NCBI GenBank assembly: GCA_934162195.1
Contig: CAKPHO010000004.1
Span: 7,031-71,030, forward strand
DNA from: an uncultured Bacilli bacterium
Lineage (GTDB): Bacteria > Bacillota_I > Bacilli_A > RF39 > UBA660
Reading direction: 5' to 3'
Length of the DNA: 64,000 bases
The notes below the pieces were generated by a model, which was not told the DNA's origin, ran no database searches, and worked only from the letters and a program-made list of their open reading frames with translations. The number at the start of each line of letters is the position of its first letter. The stretch's first letter is position 1. The translations under genes and the position numbers were made by a program. Below are positions 2,403 to 59,427 of this stretch, one piece after another.

Positions 2403-3416
2403 TTAATTTAATTGTGATTTTGAAATTGTGATTACTGGGCGAACGCCATAATTACCACTACCATCATTAACCTCAAGCTTAACTATAGATCCATCATGAT
2501 CGACTACCCACGCAAATTCAGAATCACCTATACAAGGAGAAGTTGTCCAATAGCCATATACTTCTGACTCCGAATTAGCTGTCCCTTCTAGATAATCATA
2601 TATCCATGTAGCTAACCCTGAAACTGAATTGTTATTAAATGATTTCCCTGAGGCCGTTGCTATTTGACTTGCAGTAGGAAAACTTACAGATATATTTCCA
2701 CCAAATATATCTTGCACATTTTTTAACAAGCTTTCTTCTCCAGTTGAATTTATATTCTCACATGTAGTATTATTATCTCCACCATCTATACACCATGACA
2801 CTGCAAAAAATCCACCTACAAAATTTCTATCCATTATTAAACTTATATTATCTCCAGAAGTCTCTAATACATAAAATGGTCTATCAAAATCTAAGTGACA
2901 TGTATATTTTGCCCCCACAGTTTGGCTTGTTCCTTCTTGCAATTCACATGTTAAAGTTGTCGGTTTATTATCGTCAGATGATGTATCATCTTTTTTAGTT
3001 GCTTCGTATTTCTTATTTTCTTCATCATATGAAACTTCATAATCTCCTATTGTCATCTCTGATGATTTTTTATCTACATTTCCATTTGATATTGTTATCT
3101 TACCTAAACTTGGTTTGGTTCCTTTCACATCAATAATGATTTTATCTTTATCACTACAACTTGCGCTTTTATCTCTACAAATATTTCCATCACTTGTGAT
3201 TTCATATTCTCCTTCTAAAATATTTCCGTCTAGACGTTCTGTTGCAACTACTGTTTCTACTGCACCGATATAACTATCCGCAGATCTCTCAGCTGCACCT
3301 TTCTTTGCACTTTTTATTGTGTTCATTACTATTGGGGTTGCTATTAGTGCTATTATTGCTAATACTACTATTACCGCTAGTAATTCTATTAAAGTAAAAG
3401 CATTTTTCTTCTTCAT
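2403..3416 (-). CDS. prepilin-type N-terminal cleavage/methylation domain protein with C-terminal lectin-like module (paralog A)
   Basis: MKKKNAFTLIELLAVIVVLAIIALIATPIV is a class III signal peptide (cleavage-site residue, then F+1, E+5, hydrophobic helix). Has the conserved pilin module shared with paralogs B, E, F and G. C-terminus reads YGYWTTSP...FAWVVDHDG...NYGVRPVITISKSQL. Confidence 0.85.
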   Translation of the reverse strand: MKKKNAFTLIELLAVIVVLAIIALIATPIVMNTIKSAKKGAAERSADSYIGAVETVVATERLDGNILEGEYEITSDGNICRDKSASCSDKDKIIIDVKGTKPSLGKITISNGNVDKKSSEMTIGDYEVSYDEENKKYEATKKDDTSSDDNKPTTLTCELQEGTSQTVGAKYTCHLDFDRPFYVLETSGDNISLIMDRNFVGGFFAVSWCIDGGDNNTTCENINSTGEESLLKNVQDIFGGNISVSFPTASQIATASGKSFNNNSVSGLATWIYDYLEGTANSESEVYGYWTTSPCIGDSEFAWVVDHDGSIVKLEVNDGSGNYGVRPVITISKSQLN

Positions 3417-3447
3417 CTTAACTCCTCCTAATTCTACTTCCTTTTAG

Positions 3448-3477
3448 ATTATAATCTATAAATTGTGACTTTGTCAA
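3448..3477 (-). promoter_or_regulatory. sigma-A type promoter of pilin-like gene A
   Basis: Minus-strand TTGACA (3472-3477), 18-nt spacer, TATAAT (3448-3453). About 30 nt further on is the GGAGGAG RBS and the ATG at 3416. Confidence 0.6.
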
Positions 3478-3503
3478 CAAGAAAAAATTTCACTTTACAC
3501 TAA

Positions 3504-3534: not shown

Positions 3535-5586
3535 TTAGTAATTTATTTCTTCTTTTATTTCTCTCATTATTGTTGTTGCTTCATTTATAGCATCATCAAC
3601 TGTTTTAATAGCATCATCAATCATACTATAACCAATAGCTGCTCCAAAACCATGAGATAATCCTTTAAATTCTTTATTCAATTTTCTTATATAACTTACT
3701 ACTTGTTTTTCATCATAACCTACCATGTAAATTAAGAATTCATTACCATTAGTTCTAATTATATCAGTATTTGGCATTTGAGTTGAAATAAGGATATTAG
3801 CAGCTTCACCAATTACTTTGTCACCTTCGGCATGACCATAATTATCATTAATATAAGCAACATTATTTAAATCTATTACAATAATTGTTTGTGGATATAC
3901 TTCACTATTATCCCACTTTTCAATATTATCATTTAAATAATTTCTATTTTTTAAAGATGTTAACATGTCAATATATTTTAATTTATCTTCTTTTGATAAA
4001 TTAACTTTCTTAACTTTTTTCTTTTTAGGCTTAAATATATTAAATCCAATGAATAATAATATTCCTGCACTTATTAATCCAACTATCGATAAAACAAATT
4101 TTCTAATAGAGAAAGGTCTTGCCATTAAGCTAGAAACTTCAAAGTAACCTTTATTTATTAATTCTTTTTCATTGTTAAAAGTTAAGTAGAAATCAAGCAA
4201 TTTAGCAAATAACTTATTATCATTAATATCTCTAATTGTAAAATTATAATTTGTATCTAAGTTAAAGATATTTAATATTTTATAATTTTTTAAATTCTTA
4301 CTAGCGTAAACATTATATGTATCTAAATCTAAAACAGCGATTGAATTACTTTTTAAATTAGAAAGTAAACTTTCGGTGTTTTTATAATTTTTTACTTTTA
4401 TTCCTAACTTATTTAAATAATCAGCAAGTCTAGTTTCCTCAACAACCATTACTTCTTTATCTTTTAAAGAGTTAACTGAATTTATAGAAATATTTTCATC
4501 ATTTGATAAAACTACTATTTTTTCATCATAACTAGAAACAGTATTGTAAACGTCCATATCAAATCCAAAATATGTTGTATTATTAAAAATAATATCTAAT
4601 TTATTTTGATTAAAGTCTTTAACTAAAGATGAAATATCATCATATTTTTTGTAGCTTATTTCTATACCAGCAAAATCAGAAAAATCAGAAATAATTGAAT
4701 GATTTATACCTACATATTTACCATCAACAACTAAATCATAAGGACTATTTTCATAAAAACCGTATGCGTATCTTTTGCTCTTAAATTCTACTTTATCTTT
4801 ATCTCCGATACTTGAGAAATTTAAATAACTATTTAAAAATTGATTAGCATAAGATTTATTTAATTTTTCCCTCTCCCATTTTTGATAATATTTAGTTAGA
4901 ATACTATTTAATTTATCATTACTTCCTAATTGTAAAACATAATATTTTGTCATTTCTGAAATATGATAATTGATATTTAATTTTTCGTTTGAAGCAATCT
5001 CCTTAAAGTAATTTAAACGTGGCAATACAATTGCGTCAATCTTCTTTTCTCCATCACTTTGTAAATCACTTATCATCGTTTCATAATTATCATAAGACTT
5101 TAATAAGATATCATTATTTAAATAAGTATTTACTAAGTTTAAATCATCTTTATATACTCCTACTGTGATATTTTTAATTTCATTTAAAGATCCATATTTA
5201 ACTTTATTTTTTGATATTAAAACATAGTCATCTTCATATACTTTTATTTGATTAGATTCAATATTATCAACATATTTTAATGAATATTCATTTTTTATTT
5301 CATCACCATTATTGTATGCGACCTTATTAAATTCTAATTTTGTATTATCTTCTAAATCTTTTAGAAAATCAAAAAATATACCATCACCATTATAACTTAT
5401 TAGCGGAACATTGTTAATTATTGATAAATCAATTAATTTTGATTTATTATTTTCTATCCATTGTTTTTCTAATAATGTTAAAGTGGTATTTTTGTCTTGT
5501 TTAAAGCCTATAAAATAAACTACTAAACTAACTGCTACTAAAGCTATAACACTTATAATTGTTATTCCTATTTTCTTATTCTTCAT
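3535..5586 (-). CDS. membrane-anchored sensor protein with extracytoplasmic substrate-binding-like repeats and a degenerate GGDEF domain
   Basis: N-terminal TM helix, long extracellular region, second TM helix (FVLSIVGLISAGILLFIGF). C-terminal GGDEF-type domain (LTSLKNRNYL, IDLNNVAYINDNYGHAEGDKV), but the signature is NGNEF (3736-3750) instead of GG(D/E)EF. Confidence 0.8.
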   Translation of the reverse strand: MKNKKIGITIISVIALVAVSLVVYFIGFKQDKNTTLTLLEKQWIENNKSKLIDLSIINNVPLISYNGDGIFFDFLKDLEDNTKLEFNKVAYNNGDEIKNEYSLKYVDNIESNQIKVYEDDYVLISKNKVKYGSLNEIKNITVGVYKDDLNLVNTYLNNDILLKSYDNYETMISDLQSDGEKKIDAIVLPRLNYFKEIASNEKLNINYHISEMTKYYVLQLGSNDKLNSILTKYYQKWEREKLNKSYANQFLNSYLNFSSIGDKDKVEFKSKRYAYGFYENSPYDLVVDGKYVGINHSIISDFSDFAGIEISYKKYDDISSLVKDFNQNKLDIIFNNTTYFGFDMDVYNTVSSYDEKIVVLSNDENISINSVNSLKDKEVMVVEETRLADYLNKLGIKVKNYKNTESLLSNLKSNSIAVLDLDTYNVYASKNLKNYKILNIFNLDTNYNFTIRDINDNKLFAKLLDFYLTFNNEKELINKGYFEVSSLMARPFSIRKFVLSIVGLISAGILLFIGFNIFKPKKKKVKKVNLSKEDKLKYIDMLTSLKNRNYLNDNIEKWDNSEVYPQTIIVIDLNNVAYINDNYGHAEGDKVIGEAANILISTQMPNTDIIRTNGNEFLIYMVGYDEKQVVSYIRKLNKEFKGLSHGFGAAIGYSMIDDAIKTVDDAINEATTIMREIKEEINY

Positions 5587-9006: not shown

Positions 9007-10125
9007 CTATCCTAATAGTGATTTTGAAATTGTTATTACTGGACGAACTCCATAATAAGTAGTAGAAGTTATATCATTTTCAATTAAATTTCCCTCTATA
9101 TCATAATTATCGTGATCAAGACCACCGGCATATATTACATGCCAAGCATCATAAGAATTCTTTTGACTAGGTGTTGATGTCCAATAACCTTGCGCAACAG
9201 GAAGTTCTGTATAACTATATAACCACGTTTCCAACCCAACAATAAGACTGTCCCCAAGGTTTTCATCTAAAGTTTTTGCTATTTGCTCTGCCGTTGGTAA
9301 TGTGATTTGTGATCGATTTATTTTTGTCCAAGCTGATGTTCTTTCTTTTAATGCATCATTTGCCGTAAGTGGACCTTTAGTATTATTCAATATAATATCT
9401 TCTTTACACTGTGCTTCATTCCCACACCAAGCAACCGTATTACCTAAATTAAATCCAGCTATTAGAGATACATTATCTCCATTTGTTTCCAAAATATAAA
9501 ATATACTCTCTTTACCATCCCCTAGTTCACAAGTGTATGTTACCCCTGTATCATATTCATGCCCAGCACTTACTAACAATCCTACTTCTTCTTTTGAATA
9601 TGATGATTCTTGAGATGGATCAGCACCTCCTGACCATACTAATGCACTAGCCTTGGTAGTATTAGCTTTACATAGTACTTCTAATACTGGTGTATCTGGA
9701 GTTGTATTTCCTTTTTCTGTTGCTTCATATTTCTTTGTTGTTGGGTTGTATGATACTTCATAAGAACCTACCGTTATCTTAGAATCTGTTGTCACTTGGC
9801 CATTGCTTATTGTTACAGTCCCTGAAGTTGGTTTTTTACCATTCATTTCTATTTTTAATTTTCCATCTGGTAATCCTGTTCCTATTAGATTTCCTTGTCC
9901 ATCTATTTGATATGTTCCATCTGGTACTGTTTTATTATCTAACCTTGCTTCTGCTACTGTTGTTTCTACTTGTTTTATGTAGCTATCGGCACTTCTCTCA
10001 GCTGCCCCTTTCTTCGCATTCTTAATTGTATTCATTACTATTGGTGTTGCTATTAATGCTATTATTGCTAATACTACTATTACTGCTAGTAATTCGATTA
10101 AAGTGAAAGCATTTTTTCTTTTCAT
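9007..10125 (-). CDS. prepilin-type N-terminal domain protein with C-terminal lectin-like module (paralog B)
   Basis: MKRKNAFTLIELLAVIVVLAIIALIATPIV class III signal. Has the conserved pilin module (GKKPTSGTVTISNGQVTTDSKITVGSYEVSYNPTTKKYEATEK). C-terminus reads QGYWTSTP...DAWHVIYAGG...YYGVRPVITISKSLL. Confidence 0.85.
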   Translation of the reverse strand: MKRKNAFTLIELLAVIVVLAIIALIATPIVMNTIKNAKKGAAERSADSYIKQVETTVAEARLDNKTVPDGTYQIDGQGNLIGTGLPDGKLKIEMNGKKPTSGTVTISNGQVTTDSKITVGSYEVSYNPTTKKYEATEKGNTTPDTPVLEVLCKANTTKASALVWSGGADPSQESSYSKEEVGLLVSAGHEYDTGVTYTCELGDGKESIFYILETNGDNVSLIAGFNLGNTVAWCGNEAQCKEDIILNNTKGPLTANDALKERTSAWTKINRSQITLPTAEQIAKTLDENLGDSLIVGLETWLYSYTELPVAQGYWTSTPSQKNSYDAWHVIYAGGLDHDNYDIEGNLIENDITSTTYYGVRPVITISKSLLG

Positions 10126-10156
10126 TTTAACTCCTCCTAATCTTACTTTCTATTTA

Positions 10157-10185
10157 AGAATACCTCTATAAGGAGGAATTGTCAA
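10157..10185 (-). promoter_or_regulatory. possible promoter of pilin-like gene B
   Basis: Minus-strand TTGACA (10180-10185), 17-nt spacer, TATTCT (10157-10162). Overlaps the 3' flank of the small SOS ORF. Confidence 0.4.
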
Positions 10186-10190
10186 TTATT

Positions 10191-10337
10191 TTATTTTAAA
10201 TCAGCCATTACTATTTCATTATTTTTAATATTTTCTTTCCTATCTAATCTAACCGTAATAGAAGAATCAACAAATACAATCCCTAACATTAATACTACAA
10301 ACCCTATAACAATTTTACTTTTTAACATTTCTTTCAT
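10191..10337 (-). CDS. 48-aa membrane peptide, candidate SOS-induced protein
   Basis: Below the track's size cut-off. GGGAGG RBS then ATG 10337. Sequence MKEMLKSKIVIGFVVLMLGIVFVDSSITVRLDRKENIKNNEIVMADLK has one TM helix. It is divergent from lexA, and its promoter spacer contains a perfect LexA box. Confidence 0.55.
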   Translation of the reverse strand: MKEMLKSKIVIGFVVLMLGIVFVDSSITVRLDRKENIKNNEIVMADLK

Positions 10338-18130: not shown

Positions 18131-18204
18131 TGGAGGGCCTAGTCGGATTTGAACCAACGATCAGGGAGTTGCAGTCCCACGCCTTACCACTTGGCTATAG
18201 ACCC
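18131..18204 (-). tRNA. tRNA-Cys (anticodon GCA)
   Basis: 74-nt cloverleaf on the minus strand: acceptor GGGTCTA/TAGGCCC, anticodon arm GGGA-CTGCAAC-TCCC, T arm GTTGGTTCAAATCCGAC, and an encoded CCA end. Confidence 0.9.
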
Positions 18205-27187: not shown

Positions 27188-28288
27188 TTAATTGTTTAAA
27201 ATAGAATTTGGTAACGTTATAACCGGTCGAAGAACACGATATGTTGTTTCCGCCAAACAATTTTCTTGTGAACTCATTAGTGTATCACAATTTGGATGTG
27301 AAAAATTTGTTCCCGTTATATATCCGTCATATCCACTATTTGTTGTACTTACAGTAAGAGTTAGTTCATATTTATTATTTGAGCATCCTCCCATACCATC
27401 TGGTTCACATGTTGTATAGTCAATTTCATCCTTTGTAATTGTTCTCGCTTTTAGGCCACTAAAATCTGATGTATAGCTTTTTGTTGTTGTTTGGCATCCA
27501 GAAGCTCCGTAATAACTGCAATCAGAAGTACCAAAATTTGTAACTACTTTTATCGTTGATGAATATGAATCATCTCTGATTAGTCCTTTACTCCAATTAC
27601 TAGTAATTTCTGATAATTTACTCATTATTAAAGTTGGACCATTGACAGTTCCCCAGCCTGAACTAAATTTAGAATCCGTCATCATTGCTTCAAAAGAATT
27701 TTCATTTCCTGTTGAATTTGCTATTATTAACCAATTATAGCAAGTGTCTCCTGATGTACATTTTTTATAATTCACAGGATCAAATTTAAATTTGGTTCCT
27801 ACTGTACCACCCGAGTAACTACAACTTTTACTTTTAAAGCAGCTTTTAGAAGGAACCGGCTGTGGACTTTTATCAGCAGGTATGGCAATGTAACTTTTAC
27901 TGTTTAAATCATAGCTAACATCATAATCTCCAACAGTTATAGTTGAATCATTTGTTACTTGGCCATCTTTTATTACAACTGTTCCACCTGTTGGTCTATC
28001 TCCATTTGCATCTACCTCTAGTTTTCCATTTGGTAGGCCTGTTCCTATTAAATTACCATCACTATCTATACTATAGCTTCCATTTGGAATAGCTTTCCTA
28101 TTAAGTTCTGAATTAGATATAGCTAACTCTACAGCTCTTATATAATTTTGAGCTGCTATCTCCGCAGATCCTTTCTTTGCATTCTTTATTGTTTTTGTTA
28201 CTATCGGTGTTACTATTAGTGCTATTGTTGCTAACACTACTATTACTGCTAGTAATTCAATTAAAGTAAAACCTTTTTTATTTTTCAT
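27188..28288 (-). CDS. prepilin-type N-terminal domain protein with Cys-rich C-terminal module (paralog E)
   Basis: Start at ATG 28288 behind AGGAGGA. MKNKKGFTLIELLAVIVVLATIALIVTPIV class III signal. Has the pilin module (GDRPTGGTVVIKDGQVTNDSTITVGDYDVSY). Ends in YRVLRPVITLPNSIL. Confidence 0.85.
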   Translation of the reverse strand: MKNKKGFTLIELLAVIVVLATIALIVTPIVTKTIKNAKKGSAEIAAQNYIRAVELAISNSELNRKAIPNGSYSIDSDGNLIGTGLPNGKLEVDANGDRPTGGTVVIKDGQVTNDSTITVGDYDVSYDLNSKSYIAIPADKSPQPVPSKSCFKSKSCSYSGGTVGTKFKFDPVNYKKCTSGDTCYNWLIIANSTGNENSFEAMMTDSKFSSGWGTVNGPTLIMSKLSEITSNWSKGLIRDDSYSSTIKVVTNFGTSDCSYYGASGCQTTTKSYTSDFSGLKARTITKDEIDYTTCEPDGMGGCSNNKYELTLTVSTTNSGYDGYITGTNFSHPNCDTLMSSQENCLAETTYRVLRPVITLPNSILNN

Positions 28289-28342
28289 ATTATCTTTCCT
28301 CCTTCTTTTATTTAGATTTACTTTATTTAGTAAAGGTACATC

Positions 28343-28395
28343 AAAAAAACACAAAGAAATCTAGACTATCAAAAAGTCTAGAAACTTTGTGTTTT
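28343..28395 (-). terminator. intrinsic terminator inside the leader of pilin-like gene E
   Basis: Minus-strand AAAACACAAAG-ttt-CTAGA ... TCTAG-attt-CTTTGTGTTTT composite hairpin followed by T7, about 55 nt upstream of the ATG at 28288. Confidence 0.7.
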
Positions 28396-28421
28396 CTTTA
28401 TTTTTTATTATTATAGTATGA

Positions 28422-28481
28422 TTAAATAACCCCCCCCCAGATTAGGTTTTGTGCTAAATTTATATTTACATCTTTAACCAT
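28422..28481 (-). CDS. 19-codon leader ORF containing the G9 tract (copy 1)
   Basis: The SD-like AAAGGTAGTGAT has the same layout as GGTGATAGTATG starts of real genes here. ATG at 28481. Sequence MVKDVNINLAQNLIWGGVI, then a stop. Copy 2 encodes MVKDVKINLAQNLTWGGVI with 2 synonymous and 2 non-synonymous changes. Confidence 0.5.
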   Translation of the reverse strand: MVKDVNINLAQNLIWGGVI

Positions 28482-28538
28482 ACTATCACTACCTTTACTG
28501 TATTAATTATACATTTTTATATTTATTGTTGTCAATAA

Positions 28539-32603: not shown

Positions 32604-33155
32604 TTACTCCTCCTCTAACATCTTATTATAAACTTTTTCTATATTTTTCATGTATTCTTTCTCGCTATCATTATTTAAAATAAAGTAATCTGCATAACAG
32701 ATTGGTCCACCTTTTTCTAGATTTTCTATTTCAGATATGTCACGAGTAACAGCTTGTTCATAATTAAATGGTCTAACTTCTCTATTATTTAATCTATCAT
32801 ATCTTTTTTCTTTATCAACAACAATAGAAATAAATTTTATATTTGGAAATTCTTGTTTTAATATTTTTAATTCACTCCAAGAATAAACTCCATCTAAAAC
32901 AACATTACCCTTTTCTAAAGATGATCTAATATCATCAATCAAAACATGAGCATACGCTCCCATACCAAAATCACGTCTAAGTCGTTCTCTCATCATTTTT
33001 TCATTTTCAGGTGTTACTTCTAAGCCTTCTTCTGCCAATTTTTTCATAGTTACTCCGCCAAAATATATAACTTCATAACCATGATCTTTAAAAAATGTGG
33101 TTGCAACTGACTTGCCAGATCCACACATACCTACGATTGCTACTAATCTATTCAT
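32604..33155 (-). CDS. P-loop nucleotide/nucleoside kinase family protein
   Basis: Walker A GMCGSGKS at the N-terminus and about 183 aa with a kinase-like layout. Abuts the alaS start. Confidence 0.55.
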   Translation of the reverse strand: MNRLVAIVGMCGSGKSVATTFFKDHGYEVIYFGGVTMKKLAEEGLEVTPENEKMMRERLRRDFGMGAYAHVLIDDIRSSLEKGNVVLDGVYSWSELKILKQEFPNIKFISIVVDKEKRYDRLNNREVRPFNYEQAVTRDISEIENLEKGGPICYADYFILNNDSEKEYMKNIEKVYNKMLEEE

Positions 33156-33699
33156 AATCCACCTCTTTTAATATTTTATCGATATCTACTTTTAATTTAT
33201 CTAATTCATTATTACTTACTATATAATCAAAATTATTATATCCATCTAATCCTGTTTCTGTAATATGATTCTTTTGATCACTTGTTAAATTACTTTCATA
33301 ATTGTTTCTAATAATTCTAATTGTTACCGCATCTTTATATTTATCTTTTACTGATTCTACCTCTTCTACTAGTCTAGCATCAGTTATTATAATAACATCA
33401 AAGAAATATGAATAAACTTCTATATCCTCTAAAACTCTTCTTATAAATAATTTATTATCTATTTTTTCTTTTATCAGTTCTATTCCTAGTTGTTGTAAAA
33501 GTTCTCTTGGTTTAGTCTCTTCACTACCATCCCATCCACTTATGTTTTTAGCGTATTCTTTTAAATAGCCAGCAAAAGATATAGATATAACTTTTTTACT
33601 AGAATAATAATCTTTTATCATACTAGAAACAGTTTCCTTACCACTTCTAGCTTTACCTGACAATAAAAATATTTTAACTTCTTTTTTTGCAAATTCCAT
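33148..33699 (-). CDS. P-loop protein, deoxynucleoside-monophosphate-kinase-like
   Basis: Start at ATG 33699 behind AAGGAGGAA; the track extension is T-box leader. Walker A GKARSGKET and IIITDARL (Walker B-like). Overlaps the next gene by 8 nt. Confidence 0.5.
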   Translation of the reverse strand: MEFAKKEVKIFLLSGKARSGKETVSSMIKDYYSSKKVISISFAGYLKEYAKNISGWDGSEETKPRELLQQLGIELIKEKIDNKLFIRRVLEDIEVYSYFFDVIIITDARLVEEVESVKDKYKDAVTIRIIRNNYESNLTSDQKNHITETGLDGYNNFDYIVSNNELDKLKVDIDKILKEVDYE

Positions 33700-33725
33700 A
33701 GTTCCTCCTTTATATCTAAATATAT

Positions 33726-33890
33726 AAAAACCACGTGTTTTTCTAGGAACGAAAAACCGTGGTACCATCCTAATTGATCTTAATTTTGATAACGGTTTCC
33801 CGGTGATTATTAATCACACTCCAAAGGAGCTTCAATCAAAACATTTATCTGTTTTCACCAACCACAGACTCTCTTTAAAATATTTTTAAT
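33726..33890 (-). promoter_or_regulatory. T-box riboswitch leader, Ala specifier (GCU)
   Basis: Minus strand has AGAGAG and the distal hairpin TCTGT-GGTTGGTGAAA-ACAGA. The specifier is GAA-GCU (GCT at 33828-33830). The T-box sequence GGATGGTACCACGG (33757-33770) overlaps a terminator helix followed by T5. alaS is the third gene downstream. Confidence 0.8.
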
Positions 33891-33912
33891 TTACTAATCT
33901 TCTTCAACGTTT

Positions 33913-34455
33913 TTATACAGTCATTAATTCTTGTTCTTTTATCTTAAACTTTTCATCAACAATTTTATTATATTTATTAATTAATTCTTGAACATCTTCT
34001 TGACCACTTTTTATTTCATCTTCAGGCACTTCTAATTTTTTTATATCGTTATTAGCATCTTGTCTAATATTACGAAGCGCTATTTTACATTCTTCACAAA
34101 TCGTTTTAGCTTGTTTTACATATTCTCTTCTTGTATCTTCTGTTAAAATAGGAATATTTAAAATTATTACTTCACCATTATTATTTGGAGTTAGTCCGAC
34201 ATTTGCTTCATAAATTCCTTTTTCAATAGCTCCTAAAGTAGTTCTATCAAATGGCTTAATCATAAGTTGACGTGCCTCAGGAATAGAAATAGTAGCAAGT
34301 TGTTTTAATGGTGTGTCAACTCCATAATAAGATACCATAACACCATCTAAAATAGCTGGATTTGCACGTCCTGCTCTAATATTAATTAATCTTTTTTCCA
34401 TACTCTCAATAGAAGCTTCCATTTTCATTTCTGTTTCCATTAAAATATCATCCAT
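33913..34455 (-). CDS. frr: ribosome recycling factor
   Basis: Start placed at MDDILMETEMKMEASIESMEKRLINIRAGRANPAILD. Typical Frr sequence and length of about 180 aa. Confidence 0.92.
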   Translation of the reverse strand: MDDILMETEMKMEASIESMEKRLINIRAGRANPAILDGVMVSYYGVDTPLKQLATISIPEARQLMIKPFDRTTLGAIEKGIYEANVGLTPNNNGEVIILNIPILTEDTRREYVKQAKTICEECKIALRNIRQDANNDIKKLEVPEDEIKSGQEDVQELINKYNKIVDEKFKIKEQELMTV

Positions 34456-41947: not shown

Positions 41948-42814
41948 CTAATTTTCACAATATGAGGCATCATTATCATATGAATAACAATAACTATTAG
42001 TATTTCTATCTTCAGATTTAACATAACCATCTGAATAAGAAGTCAATCCAATTATTGAATCATCATCACCATTTTCACATCCACAACCAAACTCATTGAA
42101 ATTACGACAAATAAAATCTTCAGAATGATAATTTTTTAAAACCAATGCATTTCCTGTGTAATCTGCTTCATTTTCTGCATATCCATATTCACCATTTGTT
42201 AAACAATATTCCTTATTATTAACGTCAACGCATACATACGTCTCTGTTACTTTACTATCTTTATCCAACACATGTTTTAAATAATTATTTTTTCCTAATG
42301 TGCTTGCATCTTTTGTAAATTTAGAAGTGTCACTTGAATCTATTGTATCTCCTATCTTTATTCTATCTGTTGACCATCTATATACAACTGTTGATGAACT
42401 ACTATCTTTCTCTGTTGCTTCATATTTCTTATTTGCTGAGTTGTATGCTACTTCATAAGAACCTACTGTCATCTTTGAATCAGTTGTTACTTGTCCATTG
42501 CTTATTTTTATGGTTCCTGATGTTGGCTTATTTCCATTCATTTCTATTACTAGAGGTTCTGTTAATCCGTTACCTGTTAAATTTCCTTTGTCATTTATTG
42601 TATACGTTCCATCTGGAATACCATCACTATCTAGTCTTGCTGTTGCAACTGCTGTTTCTACAGCTTCAATATAATTATCTGCACTTCTCTCTGCGGCTCC
42701 TTTTTGTGATTTTTTTATTGTATTCATTACTATTGGTGTTGCTATTAATGCGATTATTGCTAGCACTACTATTACCGCTAGTAATTCGATTAAAGTAAAT
42801 CCTCTTTTTTTCAT
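41948..42814 (-). CDS. prepilin-type N-terminal domain protein with Cys-rich C-terminal module (paralog F)
   Basis: MKKRGFTLIELLAVIVVLAIIALIATPIV class III signal. Has the pilin module (GNKPTSGTIKISNGQVTTDSKMTVGSYEVAYNSANKKYEATEK). The distinct C-terminus has about 8 Cys and no GVRPVI ending. Confidence 0.85.
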   Translation of the reverse strand: MKKRGFTLIELLAVIVVLAIIALIATPIVMNTIKKSQKGAAERSADNYIEAVETAVATARLDSDGIPDGTYTINDKGNLTGNGLTEPLVIEMNGNKPTSGTIKISNGQVTTDSKMTVGSYEVAYNSANKKYEATEKDSSSSTVVYRWSTDRIKIGDTIDSSDTSKFTKDASTLGKNNYLKHVLDKDSKVTETYVCVDVNNKEYCLTNGEYGYAENEADYTGNALVLKNYHSEDFICRNFNEFGCGCENGDDDSIIGLTSYSDGYVKSEDRNTNSYCYSYDNDASYCEN

Positions 42815-42958
42815 CTTTCTTACCTCCCTTATGATTTACATTTTAATTATACCCTTTTTTGTTTATTATAAACATAGAGTCATAATACAACTTTTATTTC
42901 CATTATTATGCTTATAATACCATTCCTTTCTATTTTATATGTTTCATAAAGGTATAAC

Positions 42959-43006
42959 AAAAACACAAAGAAATCTAGATTATCAAAAATCTAGAAACTT
43001 TGTGTT
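42959..43006 (-). terminator. intrinsic terminator inside leader cassette copy 2
   Basis: Same composite hairpin (ACACAAAG/CTTTGTGT plus TCTAGA arms) followed by T5. Confidence 0.6.
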
Positions 43007-43034
43007 TTCTTTATCTTTTATTATTATAGTATGA

Positions 43035-43094
43035 TTAAATAACCCCCCCCCAGGTTAGGTTTTGAGCTAAGTTTATTTTTACATCTTTAACCAT
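43035..43094 (-). CDS. 19-codon leader ORF containing the G9 tract (copy 2)
   Basis: ATG at 43094. Sequence MVKDVKINLAQNLTWGGVI, then a stop. Same SD-like AAAGGTAGTGAT upstream. Confidence 0.5.
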   Translation of the reverse strand: MVKDVKINLAQNLTWGGVI

Positions 43095-43153
43095 ACTATC
43101 ACTACCTTTACTGTCTTTATTATACAGTTCTATATTTATTTTTGTCAACATTT

Positions 43154-43732: not shown

Positions 43733-44785
43733 CTAACTTAAGACAATAAAAAGTATAAAACCAATTCCAAATAACAAAGTTACTAAAGATAAAAATATTA
43801 AATTTAAATAACCATTTTGTTTTTTAGGATCGTTAAATTTCAAAGTGTATTGATATCCTTTTTCATTATTTAAATCCCTAGTATTTTCATTAGATTTCAT
43901 TTCTTTTCGACGTTCTATTATTGCTAGTAAAGTTTGTTTTTGTTCCGGAGTTAAACTATTAAATTTGTTATCTAACATATATTGAAGTTCATAATCATCT
44001 AAATTGTTCATATCTACATCTTGAGGAGCTTCTACCATAACTTGAGTTTCCATTCCTTTTTCATCAATACTATTAACATCATCAGATATAGTTTCAGATG
44101 TTGTTTCATTAACTTTTCTAACTTCCATTTTGTTATCATTATTTAAATAAGTATAATAAGTTTCTCCTGTATCTTTATCAATATATATATTTCTTTTTGT
44201 ATCAACTATAAAGTTTATTTCATCTGCTTTTCTACCTTTCATAACAGCAGCAAATTCTCTTCTTTCTTCTGGAGTTAATTCTCTTGTGTTTATACTGTTG
44301 GTTGACTCTAAATTAGCTTCTAATTTATCTTTTCTCATCTCTTTTACTATTTCTTCCTTATTTTTTACCCCATCGTTACTTTGAAGATTAACAGATTTAT
44401 TTTGACGTTCATTAAATTGGGTAACAAAATCTTTATTATTCATATTATCTTCTAAAACAGTGTACGAACCATCTTTATTTTCAATTTTTATATATTTATC
44501 ATCAAAGCCTTTCTCATCTTTAATTACCATTTGAGAAACACCATCTAAATTTAAGCTAGTAGTATCTTCTTTAGTTCTATCATAATAATCAAGTACTGCA
44601 GTTGTAACTTTATTTAAATCTTGTTCATCTAGGTTTATACCAGCTTCTTTTAGTAGATTCATTAATTCTGGACTAGAATACGCTGATTCTCTTATCTTTC
44701 TAATATAATTAAGTATGTCTTCTTTTGTCTTTAACTCACCAGAATTAACCTTACTTTTTATTAAATCTACAAACTTATTATTCAT
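43733..44785 (-). CDS. hypothetical tail-anchored membrane protein
   Basis: Start at ATG 44785 behind GGTGATAGT. Charged soluble region with a single C-terminal TM helix (LNLIFLSLVTLLFGIGFILFIVL). Confidence 0.55.
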   Translation of the reverse strand: MNNKFVDLIKSKVNSGELKTKEDILNYIRKIRESAYSSPELMNLLKEAGINLDEQDLNKVTTAVLDYYDRTKEDTTSLNLDGVSQMVIKDEKGFDDKYIKIENKDGSYTVLEDNMNNKDFVTQFNERQNKSVNLQSNDGVKNKEEIVKEMRKDKLEANLESTNSINTRELTPEERREFAAVMKGRKADEINFIVDTKRNIYIDKDTGETYYTYLNNDNKMEVRKVNETTSETISDDVNSIDEKGMETQVMVEAPQDVDMNNLDDYELQYMLDNKFNSLTPEQKQTLLAIIERRKEMKSNENTRDLNNEKGYQYTLKFNDPKKQNGYLNLIFLSLVTLLFGIGFILFIVLS

Positions 44786-44821
44786 ACTATCACCAACTAT
44801 AGTATAACATAAGACTCTCAT

Positions 44822-57073: not shown

Positions 57074-58459
57074 TTATAATATTTTAGTTCTTAATACTTC
57101 TATAACTGGGCGCACACCATAACTAAAATACTGATGAACATTATTGCTGATTAGTTGTCCTTGTTCATTAACCAGCCATGCATTAGGAGATGATCCAGAA
57201 TAAGAAGAAGCTGTCCAATAATTGCCACTTACGCTATCCGAATTATTTAAACATCCATATGTTGTACAATTTGTTCTTGTTCTATCATATAACCATCCAT
57301 ATTTACATCCTGTTGTGTTTCCACTTGTACATGTTGTACTTGCTGTTGTTGTATTTGTATCAAAATAAAACATACGATAAGCATTCCTTTCATCAAAAGA
57401 TAAATTTCCTGTTATTTTAGCTATTTCATTAGCTGTTATTAATCTTGCTTTATAACTACTATAATCTATTGTATAGTTTGCTTTACTATACTGTGCTGAT
57501 TGATCCATTGTATAATTTGATGGTGTTATAGTTCCTTGCCATGATTCTGTATCTTTTTTTAACCTCGTCAATACATCTTTGGGACCATCAACTATAGTTT
57601 TTGTTGAATCCCATGCGATTAAATTTGAAGTATTATGATCTAATAACAAGCTTACTATATTTCCTCCATCATCATTGAAAGCATAAAATTTCAAACAGCC
57701 CTCTTTTACTCCTGTATTACTTTGAGTTTCTGTATAATCAGACGATGAACATTTTTCTCCTGTTGTTACATTAAAATATACTACTTCTCCATTTGTATAT
57801 GGAGGCATTTCTTCTCCTATTATTGTTACAGTTACATCACCATTTACTTTGGATAATGTTAATGTTCCGGTAGTTTTATCCCATACACTTGTTGCTCCTG
57901 CTACTGTTACACTATCTGGTAAAACATATCCTGAATTAGCAGTAAATTTTAACACTTTAACACCTTTTGTTGTTATACTTGATCCATTATTATTATCTCC
58001 ACTTACATTTGTTAGATTATATTTTATAGAATATGTTTCTAATTTTGTGGCAGTATATTTCTTTGTTGTTTCATCATAACTTACATCATATTCTCCTATT
58101 GTCATTGTTGAGTTATTTGTTACTTGACCATTATTTATTGTTATTGTTCCGCCTGATGGTTTATTTCCTTCCATCTCTATAATAACTTTATCTTTATCAT
58201 TTTCTCCACATCCTGATAGTGGACACAAATTACCATCTGGTTGAATTATATATTCACCTTCTAAGATGTTTCCTTCAAGTCTTTCGGTTGCTACTACTGT
58301 TTCTACTTGTTTTATGTAGCTATCCGCACTTCTCTCAGCTGCTCCTTTCTTTGATTTTTTGATTGTATTCATTACTATTGGTGTTGCTATTAATGCTATT
58401 ATTGCTAGCACTACTATTACCGCTAGTAATTCGATTAAAGTAAATCCTCTTTTTTTCAT
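57074..58459 (-). CDS. prepilin-type N-terminal domain protein with Ig-like plus lectin-like C-terminal modules (paralog G)
   Basis: MKKRGFTLIELLAVIVVLAIIALIATPIV; the first 94 nt differ at 1 position from paralog F. Has the pilin module, then a beta-rich insert. C-terminus reads GNYWTASS...NAWLVNEQG...SYGVRPVIEVLRTKIL. Confidence 0.85.
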   Translation of the reverse strand: MKKRGFTLIELLAVIVVLAIIALIATPIVMNTIKKSKKGAAERSADSYIKQVETVVATERLEGNILEGEYIIQPDGNLCPLSGCGENDKDKVIIEMEGNKPSGGTITINNGQVTNNSTMTIGEYDVSYDETTKKYTATKLETYSIKYNLTNVSGDNNNGSSITTKGVKVLKFTANSGYVLPDSVTVAGATSVWDKTTGTLTLSKVNGDVTVTIIGEEMPPYTNGEVVYFNVTTGEKCSSSDYTETQSNTGVKEGCLKFYAFNDDGGNIVSLLLDHNTSNLIAWDSTKTIVDGPKDVLTRLKKDTESWQGTITPSNYTMDQSAQYSKANYTIDYSSYKARLITANEIAKITGNLSFDERNAYRMFYFDTNTTTASTTCTSGNTTGCKYGWLYDRTRTNCTTYGCLNNSDSVSGNYWTASSYSGSSPNAWLVNEQGQLISNNVHQYFSYGVRPVIEVLRTKIL

Positions 58460-58492
58460 AATTTGTCCTCCTACTCTTTACTTTACATTTTA

Positions 58493-58521
58493 ATTATATA
58501 GCTAGGTTTTTTTATTGTCAA
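58493..58521 (-). promoter_or_regulatory. sigma-A type promoter of pilin-like gene G
   Basis: Minus-strand TTGACA (58516-58521), 17-nt spacer, TATAAT (58493-58498). Confidence 0.6.
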
Positions 58522-58537
58522 TCACATTTTCTTTTCT

Positions 58538-59427
58538 TTACACTAACTCATACACTCTTTGATATATCCTATCATCACTACAGTATTCCATTATAGATTT
58601 ATTATCTTTCTTACATATAATTATTCCTATTGTTGTATCTTGGTCTACTCTTCTTATATTCTTATCAACATAATTCATATATGTTTCTATTTGTCCCCTA
58701 TGTTCTTTCTTTAACTCTGTTACTTTCAGTTATATTACTACATAACAATTATAATTAATATTATAAAGTAATAAATCTATATAATTATATCTATCTACTA
58801 TTTTTATTTTGTATTCACTTTCTATATAACAAAAGCAAACACCTAATTCTTTCATAAACCCTGATAACTCTTCAAGTATCAACTTTTGTAATATCTTCTC
58901 CGATATCTTTTTATAATCATAGGTATTCTTAATTAGAATAGGATTCTTTATTAAATCATTTACTTTAGGTTCCTCGTTATTAATCAACTTTTCTTTTGTT
59001 TTTTCGTCTAATCTTTCATATTCTTTATTTTTGATTCTTTCTCTTAACTCCCTTTTACTGAGATTTTGATTAATAATTATTTTTATATAATAATTGATTT
59101 TATTAACATCTTTTAATGGTAATAACTCTACATAATGACTCCAGTTTAAAAGGTGCCCAGTGGGGCACCTTTTTCAATTGCTAAATAAAACTGCCTCATT
59201 CTTTTTAAAGAAGTCTCATTATATCCCCTACCCAAATCATTAGTCAATTTATTTGAATACTCCTTAATAATACCTTCACCATAATGTTTACCTGCTTCGG
59301 ATAATAACTTACCTACATTATAATATGTATTTAAATCACTTCTATTTTTACTATAATCTTTTACTCTCTTTGTTATCTCGTTATTTATAAGTTCCTCTTT
59401 TATTTCTCTATAGTAATTCATGATCAC
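58538..59427 (-). pseudogene. DUF1016 (YhcG-like) nuclease pseudogene, paralog of 56064-56948
   Basis: Collinear with the intact copy over its full length, including the upstream RBS/promoter region. It is broken by a frameshift near 59146-59170 and an in-frame TAA at 58730-58732 (VEVELK in the intact copy reads VVI-stop-LK here). Track fragments are 59146-59427 and 58730-58987. Confidence 0.8.

Follow-up and report, generated by a model that had tools for sequence, protein, structure and literature searches.

Introduction

Phase variation by a leader peptide and a terminator has so far been shown for the pil1 and pil3 loci of Streptococcus gallolyticus, where GCAGA repeats in a leader-peptide gene set the position of the stop codon relative to the terminator (Danne et al., 2014, PMC3894217). 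A stop 39 nt before the hairpin gives low expression and a stop within or after it gives high expression; mutants in the ATG and in stop codons and a deletion of the terminator proved this mechanism (PMC3894217). Here we analyzed a 64,000-nt stretch of an uncultured Bacilli bacterium, called the window below (contig CAKPHO010000004.1, positions 7,031 to 71,030 of the forward strand; assembly GCA_934162195.1). It contains two leader cassettes of about 200 nt, each upstream of a prepilin-type gene and each with a short open reading frame (ORF) that includes a run of nine guanines (G9) and is followed by a predicted intrinsic terminator. We propose that each cassette probably turns its downstream pilin-like gene on and off in a heritable and stochastic way, combining a hypermutable homopolymer with ribosome-dependent attenuation. 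The mechanism would not be new, and the cassettes have all the sequence-level features of the pil1/pil3 class of leader-peptide switch.

As in pil1/pil3, a promoter, a Shine-Dalgarno (SD) site with its ATG, a short repeat-bearing ORF and an intrinsic terminator precede genes for pilus proteins. The resting frame ends tens of nucleotides short of the hairpin, by 39 nt in pil1/pil3 and by about 25 nt in the cassettes, whereas a shifted frame has its stop in the hairpin or past it, and a ribosome there is proposed to keep the hairpin from forming. The repeat unit is not a multiple of three (1 nt here), the repeat number differs between strains, and both systems act on a pilus or surface structure in a gut-associated Gram-positive lineage. 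The two systems differ in the repeat itself, a G homopolymer here and 13-23 copies of GCAGA there, and in the cassettes a single shifted frame, out of two, runs into the terminator. Single prepilin-type (type IV/Com-like) genes stand behind the cassettes instead of sortase-pilus operons, and the cassettes form a dispersed family of about 10-15 or more loci per genome, whereas pil1/pil3 comprises two loci. The cassettes also have an extra hairpin (P1), in which the AUG and the stops of the OFF frames lie, possibly a closing helix (P0) and, in some copies, a probable second promoter. There is no sequence similarity between the two systems, and the cassettes are known from sequence alone, pil1/pil3 from experiment.

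Several other systems share parts of this arrangement. In Escherichia coli pyrBI, the leader ORF overlaps the terminator, and a closely following ribosome blocks the hairpin without the need of an antiterminator. Control of pyrBI is physiological, with UTP-dependent pausing setting the coupling, whereas in the cassettes the frame is set genetically by tract length and two of three frames never reach the terminator. In the vlp genes of Mycoplasma hyorhinis, a phase-variable surface family of the Mollicutes, poly-A tracts in the promoters alter promoter spacing, and in Clostridioides difficile cwpV a DNA inversion makes or breaks a leader terminator. Both resemble the cassettes in switching surface proteins, each one independently, by a hypermutable element, vlp-type gene families also have conserved 5' regions, and cwpV in particular shares the making or breaking of a leader terminator; unlike the proposed switch, neither has a translated leader ORF.

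G tracts have been described in two further settings. The sortase-pilus genes of Bifidobacterium breve carry an intragenic G tract whose replication slippage turns pili ON or OFF (Penno et al., 2022, PMC9187656). That system likewise belongs to a gut commensal and combines a G homopolymer, replication slippage and pilus ON/OFF states, but its tract lies in the structural gene and truncates the protein, whereas the tract of the cassettes belongs to a leader ORF of its own and would act via transcription termination. In Helicobacter pylori tlpB, a variable G repeat in the leader is targeted by the small RNA (sRNA) RepG, and its length sets expression (PMC8295292). Both systems place a variable G homopolymer in the 5' leader of a gene connected with the surface or with sensing; the tlpB repeat is an untranslated sRNA site, whereas the tract here lies in a maintained ORF with a frame rule, and no partner sRNA was seen in the window. 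Our literature searches for a homopolymer-in-leader attenuator gave nothing besides the systems compared here. A paper on TANB77 pilins (PMC11680825) concerns Tad-type pili of a different clade and was set aside as not related.

Anatomy of the leader cassettes

The two cassettes lie on the minus strand at 28535-28340 (copy 1) and 43148-42955 (copy 2). Aligned from the -35 box through the end of the terminator, they differ by about 8 mismatches and 3 gap columns over about 200 columns (about 95% identity). Their parts follow in the same order: promoter, CAGTAAAGGTAGTGATAGT, ATG of a 19-codon ORF with G9, A-rich spacer, long hairpin and U tract. The copy 1 promoter (28506-28535) consists of TTGACA, an 18-nt spacer and TATAAT, agrees with the consensus at 12/12 positions and is kept in related cassettes; the copy 2 promoter (43119-43148) has the same boxes and spacer and is also a perfect consensus. 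In copy 1, a split SD-like site AAAGGTAGTGAT (28496-28485) is followed by AGT and then by the leader ATG, and the 5' half of the site doubles as the 5' strand of the possible helix P0. The leader ORF of copy 1 (28481-28422) reads ATG GTT AAA GAT GTA AAT ATA AAT TTA GCA CAA AAC CTA ATC TGG GGG GGG GTT ATT TAA, which is frame A and the proposed OFF state, and its G9 tract (28430-28438) lies within the codons TGG GGG GGG G. Copy 2 has an identical SD-like site (43098-43109), a leader ORF of 19 codons and TAA (43035-43094), a G9 tract (43043-43051), a predicted P1 hairpin (43026-43099) and a terminator hairpin (42959-43009).

A previous sequence-only reading of copy 1 had described the leader ORF, its sequence and coordinates correctly, had counted 10 of 12 positions of the SD-like site in agreement with the extended anti-SD complement AAAGGAGGTGAT, and had noticed no other G or C homopolymer of this length in the window. 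This holds when runs of at least 7 are counted on either strand: the two G9 tracts are the sole such runs in 64 kb, with 0.32 expected from shuffles, and 0/100 shuffles reached 6 matches. The features of a contingency locus are present, namely a rare homopolymer at low GC, a surface-protein gene downstream and length polymorphism. The whole-cassette nature with perfect promoters, the predicted hairpin P1 and the probable second promoter of copy 2 are additions to that reading.

The spacing of the leader SD had been likened to that of gene starts such as 44785, and the motif GGTGATAGTATG is indeed present there. In this region (44783-44821, minus strand), the mechanically called ORF starts at ATG 44821, and the internal ATG 44785 follows GGTGATAGT with the spacing seen in the leader ORF. 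ATG 44785 may be the true start of that gene.

Tract length and the three-frame rule

Related cassettes were searched in metagenome-assembled genomes (MAGs) and metagenomes with a pattern anchored on the P1 arms, and loci were added by look-ups of related pilin-like proteins. Two species-representative MAGs contain 25 copies: CAKOTU01, labelled 'uncultured Bacilli' and obtained from Hadza gut, and UMGS688, labelled 'uncultured Tenericutes'. The P1-arm pattern matched 21 further metagenome stretches, and together with the loci from the protein look-ups the collection comprises 44 distinct cassettes from the two MAGs and many gut metagenomes. Every complete cassette is located upstream, on the same strand, of a gene whose product starts with M-K-x-K-GFTLIELLAVIVVLAIIALIATPIV and varies in its C-terminal part, which has about 230-670 aa. 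This protein family includes 2258 database clusters at E<=1e-5, and the cassette loci number about 10-15 or more per genome. Related leaders retain the ORF, the homopolymer and the hairpin together; leaders keeping the hairpin without the other two would have spoken against the slippage switch that the sequence-only reading had suggested.

The cassettes fall into three frames by total length modulo 3. Frame A (G9 followed by TTA) stops at a TAA in the 3' arm of P1, about 25 nt short of the terminator. Frame B (G10 or G7) stops at a TAA or TAG just past P1, about 14 nt short of it. Frame C (G8, G11, or G6 followed by TA) continues as ...LFNHTII.NKENTKFLDFLIV across the terminator's 5' arm, with its stop in the loop or 3' arm. 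For the window copies, this geometry had been recognized before: the G9 and G10 frames end short of the hairpin, and the G8 frame reads ...WGGLFNHTIIIKNKENTKFLDFLIV, ending at a TAG in the terminator 3' arm in copy 1 and at a TGA in the loop in copy 2. All these positions hold, and the TGA of copy 2 is followed by a TAA. No stop interrupts frame C between the P1 3' arm and the terminator in 37/37 complete cassettes regardless of their present frame, and its stop is inside the hairpin in 36 of them and beyond the hairpin in one.

The tract ranges from G6 to G11 among paralogs, with G9 commonest, and it also varies at a single locus. One locus recovered from seven samples (L060-L066) is identical over about 275 nt except for the tract, which is G9 in six samples and G10 in one. 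An identical 288-aa pilin gene has TG9 upstream in two samples, which puts the leader in frame A, whereas three samples have CG9 and hence frame C; in the three CG9 samples a 39-aa leader ORF was called by the gene caller. The CAKOTU01 orthologs of copies 1 and 2 are both in frame B, through G9 followed by TA and through G7 (L009), respectively. Other contigs covering the window loci have the same G9 (L001, L003) or end in the cassette or at the tract (L002, L073), giving no same-species strain contrast. Taken as sequence comparisons, these differences indicate that the tract is hypermutable.

Copies that have lost the tract (fewer than six G) are biased in frame. Seven of the eight are in frame C, compared with 6/37 of those with an intact tract (Fisher p = 2.6e-4; 0.028 when collapsed to three or four lineages). 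Their decayed tracts read GGGAGGTG, TGGAGA, TGGAGGAGA, AGGGTATTG, CTTGTTATTG and TTGGTATTG, and indels within the tract-less lineages are multiples of 3 (63, 66, 69 nt). This bias is not predicted by a non-coding model and is predicted if locked genes survive only when locked ON.

A G run could also act without any heritable change, if RNA polymerase slippage or ribosomal frameshifting on it sent a constant share of the ribosomes to frame C and thereby set a low read-through. Long homopolymers are known slippage sites, and the predominance of G9 in genomes fits such a fixed 'leaky' setting. However, genomic tract length varies between strains and paralogs, and the tract-less copies are fixed in frame C, which implies that the frame encoded in the DNA matters. 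We consider this explanation highly improbable, and it is compatible with heritable switching rather than exclusive of it.

Maintenance and possible translation of the leader ORF

The pre-tract part of the ORF is kept open. Among 41 distinct variants none has an in-frame stop 5' of the tract, despite divergent peptides and indels, and the other two frames carry stops in 40/41 and 23/41 of the same sequences. A shuffled pre-tract sequence stays open with a chance of about 0.4 each. The split SD has the form AAAGG, 2-3 nt, GTGAT or GTGGT, in three sequence variants. Its predicted duplex with the anti-SD, for which an assumed Firmicutes sequence was used, has an energy of -10.7 to -12.2 kcal/mol over three leader types, copy 1 being at -12.2. 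As a reference, the median is -9.95 for the 48 window ORFs of at least 150 aa, taken as genes, and less than 1% of internal ATGs have a site as strong.

The nucleotide changes between the two window copies had been offered as a further sign of translation. The ORF of copy 2 does keep the frame and the length and differs at 4 nt, and two changes are synonymous as claimed (AAT>AAC, GCA>GCT). The other two are non-synonymous (AAT>AAA, ATC>ACC), and because of this 2:2 split the changes carry no statistical weight as evidence of translation.

RNA folding and known RNA families

In both the minimum free energy (MFE) and the centroid folds, the leader forms only P1 and the terminator, with no competing antiterminator helix. 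Hairpin P1 of copy 1 (28413-28486) has a 14-bp stem, AUAGUAUGGUUAAA / UUUAAUCAUACUAU, predicted at -15.1 kcal/mol, and encloses the body of the ORF. It surrounds the variable part of the ORF and the G tract; its 5' arm contains the AUG, its 3' arm contains the frame-A stop, and the frame-B stop overlaps its last pair. The terminator of copy 1 (28343-28398) is predicted at -24.6 kcal/mol as an interrupted 22-bp hairpin (14+8 bp) with a U tract, and all complete cassettes retain it. Both hairpins are strongly predicted (z about -5.5), and the predicted fold is unchanged for G5 to G12, so the tract length does not act via the predicted structure, and a mechanism of that kind was rejected. A classical trp/his-type attenuator was rejected too, as there is no antiterminator pairing and no conserved leader codon run besides the tract. 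Rfam 15 was scanned over the whole window at the gathering score and over both leaders at E<=10; the leaders had no match at the gathering score and only chance-level matches to the terminator hairpin at the relaxed threshold, and on this result a riboswitch or other known RNA family was rejected.

The possible helix P0 pairs the transcript's 5' end, AGUAAAGGUA (28490-28499 in copy 1), which overlaps the leader SD, with UACCUUUACU (28329-28338) just 3' of the terminator. The MFE fold with P0 is a three-helix junction that closes P1 and the terminator, and from this model P0 could possibly form in read-through RNA only. Covariation in the P0, P1 and terminator pairs of 34 cassettes gave no support, as values as high as those observed also arise in shuffles. 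With 94% of positions paired, the helices are nearly invariant, and covariation is uninformative because they, and the P1 stem in particular, hardly vary; the invariance of P1 is in part imposed by the search pattern anchored on its arms. In P0, 85.9% of the cells are paired, the core is invariant, and the inner pair shows compensatory changes and mismatches alike.

The P1 arms are 14-bp inverted repeats 42-55 bp apart. DNA inversion between them, of the fimS or cwpV type, was rejected because the G run is on the transcribed strand in all fully read cassettes.

The folds bear most directly on a leader RNA that works without translation, in which the G tract would bind a C/U-rich sRNA or a protein, or P1 together with its loop would recruit an antitermination factor, the tract length adjusting the interaction and the ORF being incidental. 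The strength of the two predicted hairpins, the burial of the AUG in P1 and the lack of peptide conservation suit this explanation, and there is the precedent of an sRNA-targeted variable G repeat in an mRNA leader (PMC8295292). However, it leaves unexplained the absence of in-frame stops in all 41 variants, the 0 modulo 3 length rule of the tract-less copies and the openness of frame C into the terminator in every copy. It also finds no Rfam match, no alternative antiterminator pairing and no dependence of the folds on tract length, and there is no C-rich run on the transcribed strand within the window (this search covered the window, and the rest of the genome was not searched). We regard a non-coding leader of this type as unlikely.

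Downstream genes and their spacers

The gene behind copy 1 (27188-28288, minus strand) encodes 366 aa with a prepilin N-terminal cleavage/methylation domain and a C-terminal part without family match, and the gene behind copy 2 (41948-42814, minus strand) encodes 288 aa with a prepilin N-terminal domain. Both products match PF07963 and TIGR02532 above the cut-offs and have the motif G|FTLIE followed by a hydrophobic helix. Judged by this N-terminal motif, the downstream genes belong to the type IV pilin / pseudopilin class; no family matched the C-terminal domains of the pilin-like proteins, which measure about 230-640 aa.

Two classes of spacer separate the terminators from the genes. In class a, which includes copy 1, the spacer is about 47-61 nt without a promoter, and the interval between the copy 1 terminator and its gene has no promoter match of at least 9/12 on the same strand. 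In class b, which includes copy 2 (42815-42958, minus strand; about 145 nt), the spacer is about 130-150 nt and has a conserved block ...TGTATTATGACTAGATGTTTATAAG...GGGTATAATTAAA... that is found in all class-b cassettes (L008, L013, L015, L018, L021, L024, L028, L029, L031, L036, L045, L060). The element resembles the promoter region of a cassette-less family gene at about 58.5 kb of the window. From its sequence the block probably represents a second promoter whose -35 box is weak, and it perhaps includes an operator. The candidate second promoter of copy 2, P2, has its -10 box TATAAT at 42846-42851 (minus strand) within GGGTATAATTAAAATG in the long spacer; a consensus promoter scan of copy 2 did not call it.

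These spacers are relevant to the possibility that the leader product is what phase-varies, either as a frame-C protein of 35-40 aa (MVK...WGGLFNHTII.NKENTKFLDFLIV) or as an abundant RNA of about 150 nt acting in trans, with the pilin-like gene controlled otherwise. The terminated RNA would span the complete frame-C ORF including its stop, and this short RNA would be the default product because the promoter and the terminator are both strong; the class-b genes are probably promoted separately, and gene callers do call a 39-aa ORF. On the other hand, the terminator sequence dictates what the frame-C peptide contains in its C-terminal half, conservation of the N-terminal half is poor, and the 39-aa ORF that was called has no recorded Pfam family. 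Moreover, each complete cassette is tied in cis and on the same strand to one pilin-like family, and the class-a genes have no other promoter. A role of the leader product on its own is improbable in our judgment. For the proposed switch, the lack of another promoter at class-a genes, copy 1 included, and the existence of natural fusions of the promoter to the gene are points of support.

Three more family members are present in the window at 58420-58540, 10080-10200 and 3370-3500 (minus strand), with the N-terminus ...[GA]FTLIELLAVIVVLAIIALIATPIVMNTIK. They have plain TTGACA/TATAAT-type promoters, without a leader cassette or G tract. A 683-aa GGDEF-domain protein (3535-5586, minus strand) is encoded immediately upstream of one of these cassette-less members, which hints at a c-di-GMP link with this surface-protein family.

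Possible recombination, loss and decay of cassettes

The cassette is an optional part of the loci. Deletions at some loci remove exactly the P1-terminator module, and other loci are decayed remnants. In L081-L083 (520-600), the cassette promoter and 5' end TATAGTAAAGATAGTAT are joined straight to the 5' untranslated region of the gene, AAAGTAAACAAGGAGG, and P1, the tract and the terminator are gone. Among cassette-less relatives, the P0032 gene begins 64 nt after uvrA, and in P0031 the promoter is fused directly to the gene. Leaders can also be mosaic, one flanking locus having different leader types depending on the sample (L048, L037, L045; L036 vs L044). An identical 288-aa pilin-like gene with a RecD2-like helicase downstream was found behind ThrRS in some stretches and behind UvrC in others (L067/L070 vs L068/L069/L072), and this breakpoint at the cassette suggests rearrangement or gene conversion at cassettes.

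Variation at the DNA level could be the main role of the cassette, a conserved module of about 250 bp with a transcribed G run serving as portable homology or a recombination hot spot by which promoters and pilin-like genes are reshuffled, and the tract changes being a neutral by-product. The mosaic leaders, the identical pilin gene in two contexts and the frequent breaks of assemblies in the cassette or at the tract are in line with it, and it may be loosely likened to Neisseria pilE with its transcribed G4 element upstream. However, recombination does not account for the maintenance of the ORF or the frame bias of tract-less copies, a G9 run is unable to form an intramolecular quadruplex, and mosaicism is expected of any repeated sequence and fits the switch model as well. 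We find this explanation very unlikely.

Some individual stretches are worth recording. The first base of L073 and of L078 falls at the G tract or two bases within it, and the end of L002 falls in the 5' arm of P1; such assembly breaks at cassettes could come from repeat collapse, poly-G sequencing drop-out or tract heterogeneity. In L020 of UMGS688 (about 3190-3215), the pilin-like gene behind a frame-C-locked cassette lacks 1 nt within its signal-helix codons relative to L048, and this gene is a pseudogene or an assembly error. L071 (230-290) has a cassette without promoter, SD and ATG, with the decayed tract CTGAGGGG and an intact terminator, a probable dead copy or chimeric assembly. In L075 (8359-9799), from a relative bearing the label of this lineage, the sporulation proteins YabP and YqfD are encoded next to a family member, which is unexpected under a 'Tenericutes' label.

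In the window, the cassettes have ordinary chromosomal genes as neighbors, including those for FtsK, a GreA-like protein, ClpC and HrcA-GrpE. Elsewhere on the minus strand, a T-box leader is found at 33742-33916 (109.5 bits, above the gathering score), with a 206-aa ORF (33148-33768) beginning within its 3' end, and a tRNA gene is found at 18134-18204 (61.7 bits).

Proposed mechanism

We base the following model on the anatomy of the cassettes, the conservation of the ORF, the differences in tract length, the geometry of the three frames and the bias of tract-less copies towards frame C, all of which are observed. The strong promoter would initiate the leader RNA constitutively, and a ribosome would bind the split SD and the AUG and translate the short ORF with the G tract. 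In frame A, the commonest, the ribosome would stop at the TAA about 25 nt before the terminator, and in frame B it would stop about 14 nt before it; in both frames the hairpin would form, transcription would end with an RNA of about 150 nt, and the gene would be OFF or low. Slipped-strand mispairing at replication, with the loss of one G or the gain of two, would bring the ORF into frame C. The ribosome would then cross the A-rich spacer and the terminator 5' arm and stop in the loop or the 3' arm, and by trailing the RNA polymerase it would cover the 5' arm, leaving no hairpin and allowing transcription of the pilin-like gene (ON). With some 15 or more of these loci in a genome, each cell would show its own subset of surface proteins. 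In this chain we infer the translation of the ORF, the ribosome-polymerase coupling, the read-through in frame C and the switching in populations. The slippage-controlled attenuator put forward by the sequence-only reading gains comparative support from the tract variation, the open ORF, the open frame C, the frame bias and the S. gallolyticus precedent.

Three refinements may be added. Because the AUG is buried in P1, initiation would be needed before the P1 3' arm is made, and P1 may act in such a way that only a co-transcriptionally loaded ribosome counts, which is speculative. It is equally speculative that P0 shuts the leader SD in read-through RNA. Frame B, which stops near the hairpin, may be intermediate.

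A number of points weigh against the proposed switch. The AUG and part of the SD spacer are in the P1 5' arm, and a folded P1 should block initiation. The pre-tract codons have no third-position excess (entropy 0.75, 0.77, 0.85), and therefore the peptide sequence is not selected and only openness is conserved; openness without peptide conservation is the prediction for a purely regulatory leader ORF, and the codon-position test neither supports nor excludes translation. Pre-tract indels of -10, +12 and +13 nt occur, not all of which are multiples of 3, although for two of them a compensating change follows immediately after the tract. The stop-free frame C in the spacer has low power, since by our count a single substitution in that stretch would create a stop in only about 5% of cases, and we did not use it as statistical evidence for this reason. 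The predominance of G9 could come from gene conversion instead of selection, and differences between metagenome assemblies are strain differences that do not prove switching within a clone. Close ribosome-polymerase coupling is not universal in Firmicutes. Finally, class-b cassettes including copy 2 probably have their own proximal promoter, so the switch may be partial or only modulatory there.

A broader reading extends the single switch to the genome. The cassettes would form a genome-wide system of combinatorial surface variation, with about 10-15 or more pilin-like adhesin genes per genome, each behind a poly-G leader-ORF attenuator, and thousands of family members in metagenomes, in a prevalent, uncultured lineage of small-genome gut bacteria. 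There may be three expression states, with A off, B borderline and C on, and P1 would be a 'commitment' hairpin limiting control to the first co-transcriptionally loaded ribosome. The cassette would also provide recombination homology that moves leader states and genes, combining phase variation with antigenic variation. We put this broader reading forward tentatively, and it is possible rather than probable.

Biological significance

If the proposed switch is true, phase variation through leader peptide and terminator would be known from just two examples, and the cassettes would be the first of them to use a homopolymer, to control prepilin-type proteins and to occur as a dispersed multi-locus family. 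The frame rule offers a predictor of the ON/OFF state from sequence only, and its predictions are directly testable against metatranscriptomes. Metagenome assemblies and gene catalogues would have to be read differently, as the tract state would decide which members are expressed and assemblies break at cassettes. For the organisms themselves, it would mean that uncultured, low-GC gut bacteria with reduced genomes spend many loci on stochastic surface variation, which bears on colonisation, immune evasion and phage resistance.

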